Below, in pieces: positions 24 to 6,692 of a DNA stretch of 26,055 nt. Source of the stretch: a virus; the UHGV virus genome UHGV-0272533; one strand, written 5' to 3'. The notes under the pieces were generated by a model. The model worked only from the letters and a program-made list of their open reading frames with translations, did not search any database and had not been told where the DNA came from. Both the position numbers and the translations under genes were made by a program. The first letter of the stretch is position 1. Every line of letters starts with the position of its first letter.

Positions 24-629
24 ATGATGAATAAAGCTGTATTAAATAGTGAACTCATTGCCATAAAAGCGGGAGACATTATCATTTATAATTATGATGG
101 CGAAACGCGGGAATATATTTCTACATCAACTGAATATCTCGCTGTCGGCGTCGGTATCCCGGCATGTTCCTGTCTGGATGCACCAGGTACACATAAAGCT
201 GGTTATGCAATCTGTCGCTCTGTAGATTTAAATTCATGGGAATATGTGCCAGACCATCGCGGTGAAGTTGTCTATAGTACCGAAACGGGAGATACCAAAG
301 AAATCACAGTTCCGGGTGATTACCCTGAAAATACAACCACTATCGCCCCATTAACGCCATACGATAAATGGGATGGTGAGAAATGGGTGACGGATACCGA
401 GGCACAGCATAGCGCCGCACTAGACGCGGCAGAAGCACAGCGCCAGTCACTGATTAATGCAGCAATGGCTTCCATTAGTCTGATTCAGCTGAAATTACAG
501 GCCGGACGGAAGTTGACGCAGGCAGAAACAACCCGACTTAACGCCGTGCTGGATTACATTGACGCGGTGACGGCAACAGATACCAGCACCGCGCCGGATG
601 TCATCTGGCCTGAACTGCCGGAGGCGTAG
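24..629 (+). CDS. Tail fibre assembly protein (Tfa-like), convergent with the minus-strand tfa
   Basis: 201 aa; ATG at 24 preceded by GAGGG. C-terminus (LNAVLDYIDAVTATDTSTAPDVIWPELP) is the typical Tfa C-terminal motif and is shared with the ORF at 601..1044. 3' ends of the two genes overlap at 601..629. Confidence 0.7.
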   Translation: MMNKAVLNSELIAIKAGDIIIYNYDGETREYISTSTEYLAVGVGIPACSCLDAPGTHKAGYAICRSVDLNSWEYVPDHRGEVVYSTETGDTKEITVPGDYPENTTTIAPLTPYDKWDGEKWVTDTEAQHSAALDAAEAQRQSLINAAMASISLIQLKLQAGRKLTQAETTRLNAVLDYIDAVTATDTSTAPDVIWPELPEA

Positions 630-1044
630 TCCATTCAATATCTGGCGCACTGGAAGTATCGACCATTTCCAGTGCGTCCAGATAATCCAGCCACAAATTA
701 TATTGCACCAGTTCCTCACCTTTCAGACGACCAATTGATGCTTTACCTGGCCATTGTTTACTGTTGATGTATTCGTTGGCCTGATTAATCAATTGCTGCT
801 TTTTAGTTTCGGCTGATGCAATTTGTTCTTCACGTGTTGGTGGAGGAATATCTGCCCATGCAGGCAGTCCATCCTCTCCGACACATCTGTATTTTCCTTC
901 TGGTGGTGTATCATAGAAATATTCCCTGAAAATTACTTCGTCTATATCAACACCTTTTTCTTCAGGCCACTCACCTTTTTCAACATAAAGAGACTGAAGT
1001 TCATAAGGATATGCTAGGTTGTTTACGTACAGATATTTCATCAT
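601..1044 (-). CDS. tfa: Tail fibre assembly protein (Tfa)
   Basis: 147 aa; start ATG overlaps the stop of the upstream tail fibre gene (TAATG at 1042..1046). C-terminal LWLDYLDALEMVDTSSAPDIEWTTPP motif is typical of lambda-type Tfa chaperones. Confidence 0.75.
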   Translation of the reverse strand: MMKYLYVNNLAYPYELQSLYVEKGEWPEEKGVDIDEVIFREYFYDTPPEGKYRCVGEDGLPAWADIPPPTREEQIASAETKKQQLINQANEYINSKQWPGKASIGRLKGEELVQYNLWLDYLDALEMVDTSSAPDIEWTTPPAVQAR

Positions 1045-1853
1045 TACCAGCCCTTAGCGAAAAACGCACCACCTTCAAGACCATAATTGCAGTGAGCTAT
1101 GAAGCCGGTAGTGCTCCAGTTGGTCGCCCCCCACATATTCCCGCCCCCGAAACCACCATCGAACACAATTACAATGCCCGGTGTATGTGTAAATGGAATC
1201 GGGAATGAAACATTGGCGGATACAGGCCCGAGTTCACCAGGAAAACTAATTCGTCCCCACTGTTCAATTGAACCATCTGGCATTTTTCGCCAGCCTGAAC
1301 CTGATGCATATGATGACATATCAGGTATCTGATTTTCCCCAGTTCCCACATTCCGTTTTGCCGCTTCTCCCAAACCAAGGTTTGTGCGAGCGTCTGCGGC
1401 ATTCGTTGCGCCGGTTCCGCCGTCTGCGACAGTAACCGCACCGTTGCTCCCTTTCTGTGCCAGTTTACCGATGCCAGGGATGGTTACGGTGGTCCCGTTG
1501 ATGGTAACGGTGATGGTCTGGTTTGCTGAGGTAGTGGCGAACGTCTCCCACGCGCCAATGTTCTCGTCATACTCTTTGATGAGCTGCGACATTGCCTGGG
1601 CCAGTCCGTCCACGGAGATAATGTCTGACACCAGAATGGCGTATTTCTGGCCGCTCAGCGCCGGGGAAGCGGCAGGCGTAACCGTCATTGACGTGGCGCT
1701 GTTCACGGATGAAATCTGGAACAGTTGCACCGGGTTAGACATCACGATAATTGTCTGGCCAGCGCGAACCTGGCTGGCCGGTGCCGTCCAGTTTGTACCC
1801 GTCCCGGTGGCGGTATTTCCATTAATGGCGATGGTGCCGGTGTTATAAAGCAT
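1044..1853 (-). CDS. Putative tail fibre protein (short, Gly/Thr/Asn-rich)
   Basis: ORF track begins at an alternative TTG at 1868. I prefer ATG at 1851..1853 ([12 protein letters not shown]...) with GGAG 5 nt upstream. Gly/Thr/Ser/Asn-rich composition and position directly upstream of, and coupled to, tfa. Confidence 0.55.
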
Positions 1854-1869
1854 ATTTTCTCCAGGCAAT

Positions 1870-1892
1870 AAAAAAACCCCGCCGGAGCGAGG
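1870..1892 (-). terminator. Rho-independent terminator downstream of the cor-like gene
   Basis: On the minus strand: CCUCGC-UCCG-GCGGGG stem-loop (6 bp including one G-U pair) followed by U7. Sits 22 nt after the lipoprotein stop at 1914. Confidence 0.5.
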
Positions 1893-1913
1893 TTTATGTT
1901 TAAGCGTAGTGGG

Positions 1914-2147
1914 TTATTTGCAGGTTGTTTCGGTAAATGTATTCGCACTTACCCAGCGCCAGCTGAAAGGATATCCAGCCCGGTACTGCGTCTGGTTGTT
2001 TTGTTTACGCACACCGTAAATCTGAACCGTAGTTTCCTGACCGCCAACGATTGCAGTGCCGCTGCAAACTGGTTCCTGTTTCTCAATTACGCCAGCGCAT
2101 CCTGTAAGCATGACAGCGCCTGCCATGCAGATAATCAGTTTTCTCAT
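1914..2147 (-). CDS. cor: Small lipoprotein, Cor-like (putative superinfection-exclusion protein)
   Basis: 77 aa; N-terminus MRKLIICMAGAVMLTGC has a basic n-region, hydrophobic core and lipobox L-T-G-C. Size and position downstream of J are as for Cor of phi80/N15-type phages (from memory; family assignment not verified). Confidence 0.55.
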   Translation of the reverse strand: MRKLIICMAGAVMLTGCAGVIEKQEPVCSGTAIVGGQETTVQIYGVRKQNNQTQYRAGYPFSWRWVSANTFTETTCK

Positions 2148-2204
2148 TTTGATAGTATCCAGAGGAATTCAGTATCTTAGACGATACCAATACAATTCTG
2201 GTGG

Positions 2205-2262
2205 GTATAATTGATTGGATAGATCAATATTATGTTATTGATCGCTAAAAACGATCAATCAA
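2205..2262 (-). promoter_or_regulatory. AT-rich regulatory region upstream of cor with palindromic ATTGATC/GATCAAT motifs and three GATC sites; candidate promoter
   Basis: GATC at 2222..2225, 2240..2243 and 2253..2256. Inverted repeat ATTGATCG(n7)CGATCAAT at 2237..2259 and TTGAT(n8)ATCAA at 2211..2228. On the minus strand, TTGATC (2253..2258), 18-nt spacer, CATAAT (2229..2234) resembles a sigma70 promoter. Confidence 0.3.
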
Positions 2263-2933
2263 TCATAGGCCGCTGTATTTATGGCGGTTAATGAAATGCC
2301 AGTATTCGTTCCCCCTACAGGTGAACCTGTCCCAGTGGAGGTCCCCCCTGCGTTTATCCTCGTATTGGCCCCGTCAAACCTGCATGAAGAATAAGCATTT
2401 ATCGTGTAGATAGTCGGAGGCTGGGTTGAATTATTCACAATGATGGTCTGACCCAACTGAGCAGGTGCAACGGCCCATGACCCGCTCAGCGTCTGGTCAA
2501 TATTTATCCCGCCGTTTGCACCAGGCGTGCCAACCGTCTGCAGGTCTGATAGCACACGGGACTCATTAGTTAACACAAGCTTTCCGCTCGCATCCCATAT
2601 TGCCAAACCCCATTTCGGTAATATCTGCGGGAATATGGCAAAAACGTACGCCGTTAAAGTGAAACTTTGGTTGTAGGGATTAACACCAACAACATACACA
2701 TTACCGCCGTTCCTGTAAGACATAACCGGAGTGGGCTGTGCTGTATTGGTGGTTTTGATAAAAACCATCACTGGGTAATCAGCGTTTAAAGCGATATTTT
2801 GAGCAACCTGCTGAGAACTGCCATTCGCGGATGAATTGAAGGTATACTTCCCGTAAAGACAGAAAGGCGTTGATTGTGGCGTTACAAAGGGATTCCCGTT
2901 ATCCATTAATATCATCGCGCCAAATTCGGCCAT
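2259..2933 (-). CDS. Hypothetical phage protein downstream of J (paralogous to the 2933..3235 product)
   Basis: 224 aa; ATG at 2933 overlaps the upstream stop (TAATG); GGAG 8 nt upstream. Contains AIWDASGKL, similar to IQTWDASGNP in the neighbouring ORF. Function unknown. Confidence 0.5.
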   Translation of the reverse strand: MAEFGAMILMDNGNPFVTPQSTPFCLYGKYTFNSSANGSSQQVAQNIALNADYPVMVFIKTTNTAQPTPVMSYRNGGNVYVVGVNPYNQSFTLTAYVFAIFPQILPKWGLAIWDASGKLVLTNESRVLSDLQTVGTPGANGGINIDQTLSGSWAVAPAQLGQTIIVNNSTQPPTIYTINAYSSCRFDGANTRINAGGTSTGTGSPVGGTNTGISLTAINTAAYD

Positions 2934-3235
2934 TATGCTTTCTCCATGAAAACGACCACCTCACATTTAGAGGCCGGGTAATTACCCAGGCCCACAGAAG
3001 AGGCTGCGGTTACGGTTATTGTGTTCCCTGACGCGACAATGCTCCTCCCTACGCTGTTACCTCCTTCATCAAGTGAGAGCGCAAAACCGACCTTCATTCC
3101 TGAGGGTACAGTGAAAGACCAGCTGCCGGAGTTTTGTCCGGCGGCAAGTTGTATACGTCCAACAACGGAAACGGGCTTGATTCCGTAGTTGTTGGGGTTT
3201 CCCGAAGCATCCCAGGTCTGTATTCCATAAGCCAT
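2933..3235 (-). CDS. Hypothetical phage protein downstream of J
   Basis: 100 aa; start ATG 2 nt after the J stop (TGATATG). Shares the WDASG motif with the next ORF. Function unknown. Confidence 0.5.
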   Translation of the reverse strand: MAYGIQTWDASGNPNNYGIKPVSVVGRIQLAAGQNSGSWSFTVPSGMKVGFALSLDEGGNSVGRSIVASGNTITVTAASSVGLGNYPASKCEVVVFMEKA

Positions 3236-3236
3236 A

Positions 3237-6200
3237 TCAGAACACCCCCGTTAATCGGCCAACCTGCACTCTCAGAACGTTGTTGCCATCCTTGACGCTG
3301 ATTGTCTGGTTGGTCTGCTTCATGGCTCCCTCCCCAGCTGTCGAACCGTAGTTCTCAAACGTCCCGGACTTATCCAGTTTCCAGCCAACAGAGCCGGCAA
3401 CATAATTGTTCGACTGGATGTAATTGCCAATTTTTGCATTGCTTATGGTCCCGTCGCCAATGACTGTATCCCTGATAATGGCCTGGCCATTCTGGATAAC
3501 GAACGGCAGTGTTACAGTCCCGCCGACCATAGTAGTCACGGCGAAACGGTCTGCCAGGAAGATTACCTGTGACTGCATGCCGGAGGGTGTATTTTGAACC
3601 CCAATACCCATCCCGGCAGCGTAATACTGCCCGTTACTGGACACCCCCACCTTGATGTTATACATCGCGCTGAGGTTACCGTTTACATCTGCTATAGCCT
3701 GTGCGTTGACGTTTATCGCTGCACTGTTTTCGCCTGATTTAACAGTCAGAGTGTTGATTTTTGTTGCCGAAGCCTGGGTGAAATCAGCAAGAGTTTCTGT
3801 CAGGTCCGTTGAGTTAGAGATATTGCCACCAGCTTCTGCATCCAGTGTGACCAGCGCGCGTGCGACCGCCTGGCTGGTATCGGCAATCGTAGTATCCACT
3901 CTGTCTATACTGGCACTGTTCCCGGCGTTTGTTGCTGTCTGGGAACGACGACTGACAACCTGCGCCAGCCCATTCTGGATTATCGCAATTGCCGAATTCT
4001 TCACGCCTCCTGTCATACCGTCCATTGAAACGGAAATCTCATCGATTTTTACCGCCGCCTGCGCCAGCCCGTCAGCGTTTTCCTGTATATCTTTCGCCTG
4101 CTGCTCCAGCTCGTCGGCATGGTTTTTGATTTCGTCAGCCATGCCAGCAATTTTTTCATTGCTGTCCACTGCGCTCTCAATCAGATCTTTAAACGTAGCG
4201 GAGTCTTTGATCTCCTCCAGGATCACATCGGTGATATCGGAAACATCGATGCTGGCCTGACCTCGCACCCAGTCGGTATACCCGGACTCGTTTCCCGTTC
4301 TGTCGACCAGTTGCGCGCGATACCAGAAAATCTGCCCTGCCTTAAGACCCATCTGCTGATATTTGCGCTGCGGATAAGGCACATCGGCCAGCAGCATTGC
4401 ATCATCTTCGCTACCGGTCAGGCTGTACTGAATTTCCGTCTTCAGCGTGTCTTCGGTATTCGCCGGGAATCCCCAGTTCAGCTCGATACCGAATACCACG
4501 TTTTCAGAAGCGATGAAGCCAACCGGCTTCGGTGGGTTTCCCACTTTACCCGTCAACGTTTTCTCTTCTGAATAGCCCCACCCAGATGAAATTTCGGCGG
4601 CATTGATGGCACGCACGCGAACCAGGTAGCGTCCTGCATAAATCCCCGGAACATCGAATGACGTGGTGGAGCTGCGCGGCACATTCACCCAGTTCCCGTC
4701 ATTGCGACGCCACTGTGCCTCATACGCGATAGCATTTTTCGCCTGGTCCCAGCTGACGCGCATGGTCTCAACGCTGATATTCTGCTGAACGACAGAAAAC
4801 GAACTGATCGCGATATTAGCTGGCGGGGACTGATTACCGGGCGGAATTACACTTATTGGCCGCTGGTCGACGATGGCGCCGGTATCGATACGGGCATACT
4901 TATCCGGATCGTGAAAAGCACCAGTAATAGAAAACGTGCCGTCGTTATTATCAGAGACGCTGATAACACGATATTGCTGTGCATAAAGCTCGTCGGATTC
5001 GACAATCCATACCGATTCGACTGCCGGTGTTTCGCTGTATGCCGTGGTCACGGTGACAGCCCGGCCGTTTACGCTCTGAATCGTCCTGCTCTGCGATGCG
5101 CCAGACGGCAGGTTAACCATAAGACGGCTTCCGGCAACGGCAGCGGAATCACGATCAAGCGTGATAACGCGACCATTAACCGCGCTGATACGCCCTCCCA
5201 TCACCTTTCCGGATAACAGCTCATCGGCAACCGCGATAATATAACCAGGCTGTGGAATGTTGCCGTCCAGACCAACATCAAACGATACGATGCGATCCTT
5301 GTTATTGGTCTGAATCCCCCAGCGCCCCTTACGGTTTGCCTCAGACTGCCGGGTACAGCCAATGGCTGTCATCTCGAGCTGGTTTGTGCCAAAGCGAGCG
5401 ACGAGCTCCTGTTCAAAAACCGGCTCCATCGCATCTGCGTAGGCATTACCCGGATCTGACCAGGAAACCAGCGCGGTGGTATAGCGGTTTTTAGTGGTGC
5501 TGCCAGAATAGGTAAAGCGGCCGTCAACCACGTTAGCGCGGGTGTAGCTGTAATCAACATCGCGGGGCATATCTGCCAGTGCAACGATTTGATTGCCGCC
5601 CCAGTACGTCATGCCACGGAATATCGCCGCAAAATCACGTAACACGGTATAGGCGTCATTCCTCTCCTGCACGTACACGTTACAGGTATAGCGAGGCTCG
5701 GTGCCGCTACCGCCTTTACCATCAGGAACCAGCTGATCGCAATATTGTGCGACCTGGTAAAGCGTCCATTTATCAATATTTGCCGCCGTCAGGCGGTCGC
5801 CAAGTCCAAAACGGTCGCTCACCACCAGATCGTAAAAAATCCACGCCGGATTGTCCGTCCATGCCCACTTAAACGCCCCCGTCCAGGTACCGCTATAGGT
5901 CCGGGTTTCCGGATCGTAAGTATCCGGCACGCGGATAACGCGCCCGCGCGGTTCACAGGAAATTTGCGGGATGGAGCCGTTAAACTGGCTTGAATCGAAT
6001 TCAATGTACAGCAGCGCGGTGTTTGGATAGCGCAGTTTGGCATCGATTACCTCCGTGTAGCTCTGCAGCGTCATCGTGTCGCCAATTTTCGCACTGTTCG
6101 CATCTGCGGTGAGCTTACGAAGACGTACCGTCCAGGTGCTTCCCGCCTGCGGTAAGTCGATACGGTGGCTGCGTTCGTAGCCTGACGTGGTTTTCCCGGT

Positions 6201-6692
6201 GACGCTGGTATTAAGCACGGTCTGCCAGGTACCGCCATCTGTCTGCAGATCGATAGCGTAATTAATCGAATAGCCGACCAGATCGCCGTCGTCCTCCTGT
6301 TTAAACAGTGATGGCCATTTGAGGCGCAGACGAATGGCTGACAGCTGGGTGTTGGTAAAGGTATGCGTCCAGGCCGTAGCGCTTGAAACTTCGGTACCTA
6401 CGCTGATTTCATTCTCGGTACCGGGGATGCCCTGAATATACTTTTGAGCCTGAGTCCCCGGGCGGAACTCCCATGCCACGCCGCTGAAGTTTTGCGATCC
6501 GTCTGCATTCTCCAGTGGCGTGCCGTCAAGATAGATATCTTTAGCCGTTAACTGCCCCGCAAATTCCCCTTCTCCCAGCGCAACAAGAATCTTGGCCTTC
6601 GCTACGGACTGGAGATCGTCTGGCTGTTCTGTAGGGGTACGGGAACTGGAACTGCCGCCCTTGCGGCCTCTAATCGGAGTGGAAGTAGCCAT
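3237..6692 (-). CDS. J: Tail tip / host specificity protein J
   Basis: 1151 aa, ATG at 6692. Central region has recognisable similarity to lambda gpJ (e.g. ...YTCNVYVQERNDAYTVLRDFAAIFRGMTYW...). The C-terminal end (...VLRVQVGRLTGVF) differs from lambda's. Confidence 0.9.
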   Translation of the reverse strand: MATSTPIRGRKGGSSSSRTPTEQPDDLQSVAKAKILVALGEGEFAGQLTAKDIYLDGTPLENADGSQNFSGVAWEFRPGTQAQKYIQGIPGTENEISVGTEVSSATAWTHTFTNTQLSAIRLRLKWPSLFKQEDDGDLVGYSINYAIDLQTDGGTWQTVLNTSVTGKTTSGYERSHRIDLPQAGSTWTVRLRKLTADANSAKIGDTMTLQSYTEVIDAKLRYPNTALLYIEFDSSQFNGSIPQISCEPRGRVIRVPDTYDPETRTYSGTWTGAFKWAWTDNPAWIFYDLVVSDRFGLGDRLTAANIDKWTLYQVAQYCDQLVPDGKGGSGTEPRYTCNVYVQERNDAYTVLRDFAAIFRGMTYWGGNQIVALADMPRDVDYSYTRANVVDGRFTYSGSTTKNRYTTALVSWSDPGNAYADAMEPVFEQELVARFGTNQLEMTAIGCTRQSEANRKGRWGIQTNNKDRIVSFDVGLDGNIPQPGYIIAVADELLSGKVMGGRISAVNGRVITLDRDSAAVAGSRLMVNLPSGASQSRTIQSVNGRAVTVTTAYSETPAVESVWIVESDELYAQQYRVISVSDNNDGTFSITGAFHDPDKYARIDTGAIVDQRPISVIPPGNQSPPANIAISSFSVVQQNISVETMRVSWDQAKNAIAYEAQWRRNDGNWVNVPRSSTTSFDVPGIYAGRYLVRVRAINAAEISSGWGYSEEKTLTGKVGNPPKPVGFIASENVVFGIELNWGFPANTEDTLKTEIQYSLTGSEDDAMLLADVPYPQRKYQQMGLKAGQIFWYRAQLVDRTGNESGYTDWVRGQASIDVSDITDVILEEIKDSATFKDLIESAVDSNEKIAGMADEIKNHADELEQQAKDIQENADGLAQAAVKIDEISVSMDGMTGGVKNSAIAIIQNGLAQVVSRRSQTATNAGNSASIDRVDTTIADTSQAVARALVTLDAEAGGNISNSTDLTETLADFTQASATKINTLTVKSGENSAAINVNAQAIADVNGNLSAMYNIKVGVSSNGQYYAAGMGIGVQNTPSGMQSQVIFLADRFAVTTMVGGTVTLPFVIQNGQAIIRDTVIGDGTISNAKIGNYIQSNNYVAGSVGWKLDKSGTFENYGSTAGEGAMKQTNQTISVKDGNNVLRVQVGRLTGVF

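Follow-up and report, generated by a model that had tools for sequence, protein, structure and literature searches.

A two-gene cassette behind the J gene of virus genome UHGV-0272533 is probably a FhuA-binding tail-tip module

The 26,055-nucleotide stretch of virus genome UHGV-0272533 analysed here (the window) carries two small genes, gp22 and gp23, directly behind the gene for the central tail fibre protein J. Their products most probably form a detachable two-chain module at the tip of J that recognises the iron transporter FhuA, and do not act as membrane or exclusion proteins; we put the probability of this reading at roughly three in four. Both products lack signal peptides and membrane segments, and translation of their genes is coupled to that of J, which is why a tail-tip module is the best reading. 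The locus belongs to, and is nearly identical with, the FhuA-type "bona fide RBP locus" (RBP, receptor-binding protein) downstream of gpJ and is for that reason already known; earlier accounts of it concern Drexlerviridae and related siphoviruses (PMC8594841; bioRxiv 10.64898/2026.04.02.716166). The first-pass annotation, made from the sequence alone, had reported open reading frames (ORFs) of 100 and 224 amino acids (aa) at 2259-3235 downstream of J, with no strand stated, and had guessed at tail-tip accessory or receptor-binding proteins. Both ORFs are found there, on the minus strand, and the guess is supported, the same role having already been proposed for the pair (PMC8594841; bioRxiv 10.64898/2026.04.02.716166). 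The genes are:

3237..6692, minus strand: J-like central tail fibre or tip attachment protein, 1151 aa, recognised by its Pfam domains
2933..3235, minus strand: gp22-like small subunit, 100 aa, corresponding to gp22 of phi80 and N15 and gp32 of T1 (PHROG 557)
2259..2933, minus strand: gp23-like large subunit, 224 aa, two beta-sandwich domains, corresponding to gp23 of phi80 and N15 and gp31 of T1 (PHROG 425)

Nucleotide comparisons of the stretch 1800-3400 show 99.7% identity to mEp237, 99.2-99.9% to HK140/HK225 and 88.7% to phi80, where the pair is annotated as gp22 (100 aa) and gp23 (224 aa) with no function stated. Many mEp phages have been reported to be cor+ and FhuA-dependent. The first-pass annotation proposed hidden Markov model and structure searches as a check, and these returned the PHROG families of both proteins over their full length (gp22 to PHROG 557, E 3e-36; gp23 to PHROG 425, E 3e-80) and a receptor-binding fold for gp23. 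Neither protein had a match in Pfam (E<=0.1), NCBIfam or PADLOC, and searches of the PDB sequences with phmmer and hmmsearch gave nothing meaningful. Behind the J homologue of T1 the counterparts are ST32 (gp32, 101 aa, 57% identical) and ST31 (gp31, 229 aa, 55% identical), and gp22 is also 57% identical to gp23 of Klebsiella phage Call, where the pair again follows J. The large protein was found by tblastn in 350 phage records, including N15, HK022, T1-like phages, Klebsiella Webervirus and FhuA-dependent Dhillonvirus phages such as Teewinot, Envy and bob. T1, Call, phi80 and 36 loci from IMG/VR share the order J, small protein, large protein. The pair is present at a nucleotide identity of at least 80% in 49 of 5,426 complete E. 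coli genomes, and only 155 relatives, nearly all of 200-240 aa, came out when 1.84 billion cluster representatives were searched with a profile.

There is no essential difference from the cassette of phi80, N15, T1 and HK022, in which the two genes have the same order and similar sizes (100/101 and 224/229 aa), the same place after J and an adjoining cor gene. T1 deviates in having a terminator between J and the pair and cor on the opposite strand, whereas in the window the three genes are coupled and cor lies on the same strand. The association between the cassette and FhuA has been stated before (PMC8594841; PMC13164509; bioRxiv 10.64898/2026.04.02.716166), and phi80, T1, N15 and HK022 are all FhuA phages (PMC13164509; PMC10373560). 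Wietzorrek et al. 2006, as cited in PMC13164509, noted the locus in T1, HK022, N15, ES18 and phi80.

A small and a large protein of this kind were also seen in Acinetobacter phage Presley (NC_023581, 381-1375 of locus L136), with about 100 aa ("MSQGLQCFDENGK...") and about 220 aa ("MSGFEV..."). In Presley, an N4-like podovirus, they stand behind a giant tail protein, and the pair recurs in the unrelated 65-kb phages Pantoea TacPo2 (L133), E. coli PJNS034 (L135) and Cronobacter ENT39118 (L134). These occurrences indicate that the cassette is portable far beyond J-bearing siphoviruses. A divergent FhuA-type sub-type was found in IMG/VR loci L040, L042-L044, L047, L048, L050, L057, L063-L065, L067, L068, L074, L075, L091, L093 and L096. 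Its small protein is 42-45% identical and its large protein 34-38%, with 74-78% for cor and 70-86% for the J C-terminus, so that the cassette either changes much faster than the genes around it or is swapped by recombination.

The junctions between the genes point to joint expression with J. A single base lies between the J stop codon TGA (3239..3237) and the ATG of gp22 (TGA-N-ATG). The TAA of gp22 (2935..2933) and the ATG of gp23 (2933..2931) share one base on the minus strand, which bears out the TAATG overlap described in the first-pass annotation. Judging from these junctions, gp22 and gp23 are translationally coupled to J. A promoter-like site was found upstream of cor only, and the pair is joined to J in the late structural operon. 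The position had been likened to that of lom and stf in lambda, and this correspondence was confirmed. Identity with the lambda Lom barrel or with a side tail fibre was considered and rejected: there is no Pfam match at E<=0.1, the structural models are beta-sandwiches, and the real stf and tfa genes lie further downstream.

The pair is labelled "hypothetical" in RefSeq, and elsewhere carries the names "outer membrane protein" as well as "membrane associated protein". The latter names are misleading and have already led one paper to a membrane or exclusion proposal. The N-termini (MAYGIQTWD... in gp22 and MAEFGAMIL... in gp23) contain no signal peptide, lipobox, hydrophobic segment or transmembrane segment, and the maximum Kyte-Doolittle mean over 19 residues is 1.14 and 1.18, respectively. 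A membrane protein, as read from the PHROG names, is a reading that we reject from hydropathy and N-terminal sequence.

The gene next to the pair, separated from gp23 by a 111-nt gap, is cor with its own signals:

1914..2147, minus strand: cor, FhuA-blocking superinfection-exclusion lipoprotein, 77 aa (NCBIfam lamb_exclu_cor, E 9e-42; PHROG 1119)
2258..2229, minus strand: promoter-like site upstream of cor
1895..1874, minus strand: terminator-like hairpin 3' of cor, followed by side tail fibre and assembly genes

The cor gene labels the cassette as FhuA-specific, yet it forms a separate transcription unit. In the phi80 record cor has its own mapped promoter and transcription start site and is labelled a moron. 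It is scarcely probable that gp22 and gp23 are accessory parts of Cor superinfection exclusion, acting in the envelope of the infected or lysogenic cell to block FhuA, as proposed in PMC13164509 and in keeping with the proximity of the pair to cor in FhuA phages. Proteins with no signal peptide, lipobox or hydrophobic segment have no route to the envelope. The pair belongs to the late operon and is joined to J by translational coupling; cor, by contrast, is a lysogen-expressed moron with its own promoter and terminator. In T1 the cor gene is on the opposite strand, and Klebsiella phage Call and IMG/VR loci L052, L099 and L104 have the pair but no cor. Furthermore, the fold of gp23 is that of an RBP from virions, and PADLOC gave no matches for the pair.

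A stem-loop with a 7-bp stem and a 7-nt loop (TTGATCG-TTTTTAG-CGATCAA) is found at 2238..2258 on the minus strand, directly 3' of the gp23 stop codon, and shares bases with the -35-like hexamer in the promoter-like site of cor. Its possible roles are those of a weak terminator or of an operator that keeps late transcription and cor expression apart.

The J protein of the window contains the Pfam domains FNIII-A_GpJ (92-218), Phage-tail_3 (343-505) and Phage_Tail_Tip (993-1128), has no PF12421, and ends 23 residues past the Phage_Tail_Tip domain. In lambda J, PF09327 at 845-972 is followed by PF12421 (Ig_GpJ_C, the receptor-binding domain) at 1001-1132, whereas J of the window, of T1 and of Rtp all end after PF09327. 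The window J is thus without the lambda-type C-terminal receptor-binding domain.

The end of J varies together with the cassette behind it, as seen in 80 IMG/VR loci (L025-L104) with a J that is 74-98% identical to the window J. A gp22-like ORF is present in 36 of these loci, accompanied by gp23 in 35 (the exception, L061, meets the contig edge) and by cor in 32. Another pair of 100 and 213 aa (BtuB type) with a lipoprotein on the opposite strand is found in eight loci, a single Rtp44-like protein of about 320 aa in about 18, and a different 321-aa protein ("MQTFIAG...") in two. The remaining loci have no cassette and a J extended to 1260-1382 aa, that is, by 100-230 extra C-terminal residues. 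Each cassette type has its own version of J in the last 14 residues, in every locus carrying that type; the versions are "...LRVQ[IV]G.[IL]TG..", "...LRVRMGLW", "...GGGRIVLG.W." and "...GRLAAVMGQRV". The tail "...NVLRVQVGRLTGVF" is specific to loci with the gp22/gp23 cassette. This one-to-one matching between J tail and cassette supports a direct contact between the two. A scan with T1 J rendered 17 loci only, all close relatives of T1.

These observations also bear on the role of J itself. J is the RBP for LamB in lambda and has been analysed as the RBP of FhuA phages (PMC10373560), so J might bind FhuA here, with gp22 and gp23 as dispensable decorations or as proteins for another step such as outer-membrane penetration or the TonB-dependent trigger. 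The lack of PF12421 in J of the window, T1 and Rtp makes this very unlikely, as do the 100-230 additional residues in close J relatives without a cassette and the sorting of J tails by cassette type. K-mers predictive of FhuA have been found in the C-terminal tip of J as well (bioRxiv 10.64898/2026.04.02.716166), which the sorting of the tails explains without J binding the receptor.

Both proteins contain WDASG, at residues 8-12 in gp22 (GIQTWDASGN) and 113-117 in gp23 (GLAIWDASGK). Of the motif first suggested, (I/Q)xWDASG(N/K), the WDASG core is present in both proteins but the (I/Q)x flank is loose, with the isoleucine of gp23 at -1 and not at -2. In this pair alone the sharing is only suggestive, because an exact shared 5-mer occurred in 3.2% of composition-preserving shuffles and BLASTP of gp22 against gp23 aligned only the 10 aa of the motif (E=0.028). 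Within the gp22 family G4, W8, D9 and G12 are kept in 100, 100, 93 and 99% of 120 sequences, and within the gp23 family G109, W113, D114 and G117 in 99, 99, 98 and 95% of 128 sequences. The same motif starts the small protein of the unrelated-looking IsaakIselin cassette ("MPGLQAWDASGNL").

The two products had also been called paralogous, to be checked by pairwise alignment. BLASTP did not reach beyond the 10 motif residues and HHalign with shallow first alignments matched gp22 and gp23 over 12 columns only, whereas the comparison of diverse profiles was significant. With a gp23 alignment rebuilt from the representative search (131 sequences below 70% identity), the gp22 family aligned end to end with gp23 residues 2-99 (93.3%, E 2.8e-7, 91 columns), and the first 32 residues of gp23 domain 1 matched the start of domain 2 (92%, E 6.8e-7, 32 columns). 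The HHalign E-values given here are for single comparisons, of which about 30 were run, and this leaves the conclusion unaffected. From these profiles gp22 is a paralogue of the first domain of gp23, so that the suggested paralogy holds for the first half of gp23 and not for the whole protein. The WDASG-type hairpin, with the consensus G-x7-G, marks the start of each unit of about 100 residues.

Natural gp22-gp23 fusions were sought among the 155 representatives, with no genuine case found, only decayed-prophage chimeras. In P0262, P0181, P0221, P0171 and P0166, from bacterial genome and metagenome records, the C-terminal two-thirds of gp23 is preceded, with no break, by a part of J or by an unrelated ORF. 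These are apparently deletion products of decaying prophages and can mimic domain fusions.

Models made with AlphaFold2 (AF2) divide the proteins as follows:

gp22 residues 1-20: N-terminal hairpin segment; residues 21-100: seven-stranded beta-sandwich
3200..3226, minus strand: hairpin motif of gp22, residues 4-12 (GIQTWDASG)
2625..2933, minus strand: gp23 domain 1, residues 1-103, hairpin segment (low-confidence 1-20) and beta-sandwich
2262..2624, minus strand: gp23 domain 2, residues 104-224, opening with the WDASG hairpin and including the variable segment 161-215
2583..2609, minus strand: hairpin motif of gp23, residues 109-117 (GLAIWDASG), modelled strands 111-113 and 119-122

The gp22 model has a predicted local distance difference test (pLDDT) score of 85 overall and only 53-59 in residues 1-20. 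For gp23 the pLDDT is 91.3 and the predicted template modelling (pTM) score 0.88, and the WDASG hairpin opens the second sandwich. A comparison of model outlines and strand patterns, each chain being folded alone, shows a like layout in gp22 and residues 1-103 of gp23. A Foldseek search of BFVD with the gp22 model gave no match at E<=1e-3, and its own family was not retrieved either. The fibre-like composition ascribed to the pair stands in so far as both proteins are rich in G, S, T, N and A, but the models are compact beta-sandwiches and not fibres.

Sequence entropy in gp23 is low at 96-160 and 216-224 and high at 161-215. The N-terminal 20-26 residues or so are the best conserved part of both proteins, yet the first 20 or so are modelled with low confidence in the lone chains, as expected of partner-binding segments. 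Conservation is higher in gp22 than in gp23 at 29 of the 34 paired loci, which fits an adaptor and a receptor-facing subunit.

The greater conservation of gp22 would also agree with a role outside the virion. Only gp23 would then be a virion receptor binder, and gp22 a non-structural assembly chaperone, like the tail fibre assembly proteins, that folds or attaches gp23 and is then released. The small size of gp22, its place directly upstream and its translational coupling are in line with this, the LptD-type cassette works with a single chain, and the wording "RBP plus one or two accessory proteins" has been used (bioRxiv 10.64898/2026.04.02.716166). Nevertheless, such a chaperone is unlikely: the paralogy between gp22 and domain 1 of gp23 is easier to reconcile with a structural repeat, gp22 resembles neither Caudo_TAP nor any other chaperone family, and its beta-sandwich is confidently folded alone by AF2. 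The BtuB-type cassette, moreover, keeps the arrangement of a small and a large protein in very different phages.

The fold of gp23 is shared with the LptD-binding RBP of Oekolampad (Bas18; PDB 9RPT chain C) at about 10% identity, and HHalign links gp23 residues 53-164 to residues 153-258 of Rtp44 (92.0-94.3%, E 1e-7 to 6.4e-7, 77-97 columns). The Oekolampad RBP and Rtp44 resemble the pair in that the gene adjoins the J homologue, in having a periplasmic exclusion lipoprotein as partner and in the N-terminus (M-x-x-G-I/L-x-I-...-G-x-P). They differ in being one chain of 311-327 aa, where the pair has chains of 100 and 224 aa, and in their receptor, which is LptDE and not FhuA. In Rtp, unlike gp22 and gp23, Rtp44 is transcribed from the opposite strand along with its exclusion gene. 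The Oekolampad RBP is monomeric, with a C-terminal part that inserts into the receptor, where Gln299 contacts LptD loop EL4, and with a disordered tail-proximal end (PMC12685063). Homology to this protein makes domain 2 of gp23, with the variable segment 161-215, the likely receptor-facing end. Comparisons of sequence profiles detected no correspondence between gp22 and the N-terminal third of Rtp44, nor were three internal repeats detected in Rtp44 at the sequence level.

The BtuB-type cassette (IsaakIselin bas10_0026/0025, HK639 and "Module B" in the lambdoid loci of IMG/VR) likewise consists of about 100 aa plus about 213-217 aa next to J, and the large proteins of the IMG/VR pair and of IsaakIselin share 50% identity. 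In IsaakIselin the small protein opens with the shared motif MPGLQAWDASGN, like gp22, and the J tail is related (…VLRVRMGLW/F). HHalign connects gp23 domain 1 with the family of BtuB-type small proteins (94.7%, 93 columns); for the large subunit and gp23, with a probability of 32%, homology is no more than possible. The exclusion lipoprotein is a different one and the receptor is BtuB (bioRxiv 10.64898/2026.04.02.716166). The C-terminal domain of lambda J (PF12421) and pb5 of T5 are functional analogues, since they bind outer-membrane proteins at the tip of the central fibre in siphoviruses. T5 pb5 is a separate monomeric protein that also binds FhuA.

If gp22 and gp23 form a FhuA-binding module, J would supply the fibre, stop after the tail tip fibre domain and bring no receptor-binding domain. 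The single hairpin-led beta-sandwich of gp22 and the two units of gp23 would be made from the late message of J through translational coupling, and would attach to the tip of J by their N-terminal hairpin segments, which are conserved and intrinsically unfolded. The probable role of gp22 is that of an adaptor or partner of gp23 at the J tip, while gp23 would be the FhuA-binding protein proper, its C-terminal domain (variable 161-215) engaging the extracellular face of FhuA. This engagement may lead to TonB-dependent irreversible adsorption, which is known for phi80 and T1 (PMC10373560), and Cor, expressed from its own promoter, would shut FhuA from the periplasmic side. The presence of both proteins in virions, the chain that touches FhuA and the stoichiometry are inferred.

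Several points weigh against this interpretation. A literature search found no experiment or proteomic record of gp22 or gp23 in virions, and the cryo-electron microscopy of the T1 tail tip leaves distal J unresolved and gp31 and gp32 unmentioned (PMC11945409). The pair is suggested to be part of the Cor exclusion system in one 2026 paper (PMC13164509), and J itself has been treated as the RBP (PMC10373560). The fold match is to a binder of LptD at 10% identity and so supports "RBP-like" and not FhuA binding as such. Hairpin docking is suggested by conservation, low pLDDT and co-variation only. The annotated T1 terminator between J and gp32 means that coupling to J is not universal.

It is tempting to regard the FhuA-, BtuB- and LptD-type cassettes as divergent versions of one modular device of hairpin and beta-sandwich units of about 100 residues, although this is more speculative. 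Each would have three units, one plus two in two chains for FhuA and BtuB and possibly three in one chain for LptD, forming a pseudo-threefold cap with conserved G-x7-G hairpins that dock on the three C-terminal strands of the J trimer. If true, such a cap would reconcile the trimeric symmetry of the fibre with a receptor that is a monomer. Cassettes of these three types have been described as unrelated, and bioRxiv 10.64898/2026.04.02.716166 lists the proteins of the FhuA and LptD types as unrelated families.

The comparisons suggest a common origin for several RBP families of small siphoviruses that are regarded as "unrelated". FhuA (TonA) is to our knowledge the oldest known phage receptor, and we know of no experiment that shows which protein recognises it in T1, phi80, N15 and HK022. 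Three observations appear to go beyond published accounts: the homology that joins gp22 to domain 1 of gp23 and also to the small protein of the BtuB type, the link in fold and profile between FhuA-type and LptD-type proteins, and the strict correspondence between cassette type and the last J residues in lambdoid prophages. The basic picture of the BASEL papers is unchanged, and the gain is one of refinement and not of discovery. The RBP fold of gp23, the duplicate of its domain 1 in gp22 and the J end that matches the cassette are handles for a direct test and for receptor-swap engineering.

Downstream of the pair lie the side tail fibre genes:

1044..1868: stf
601..1044: tfa

Two tail fibre assembly genes, at 24..629 on the plus strand and 601..1044 on the minus strand, both match Caudo_TAP (E about 1e-31) and converge with a 29-nt overlap. 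A short inverted repeat (548-565 and 674-691) mirrors the homologous 3' ends of the two genes. A DNA invertase is encoded close to this region in mEp237, a sign that the tail-fibre tip system may be invertible or alternative. Below about 1860, in its stf region, the window is unlike mEp237 and HK225.

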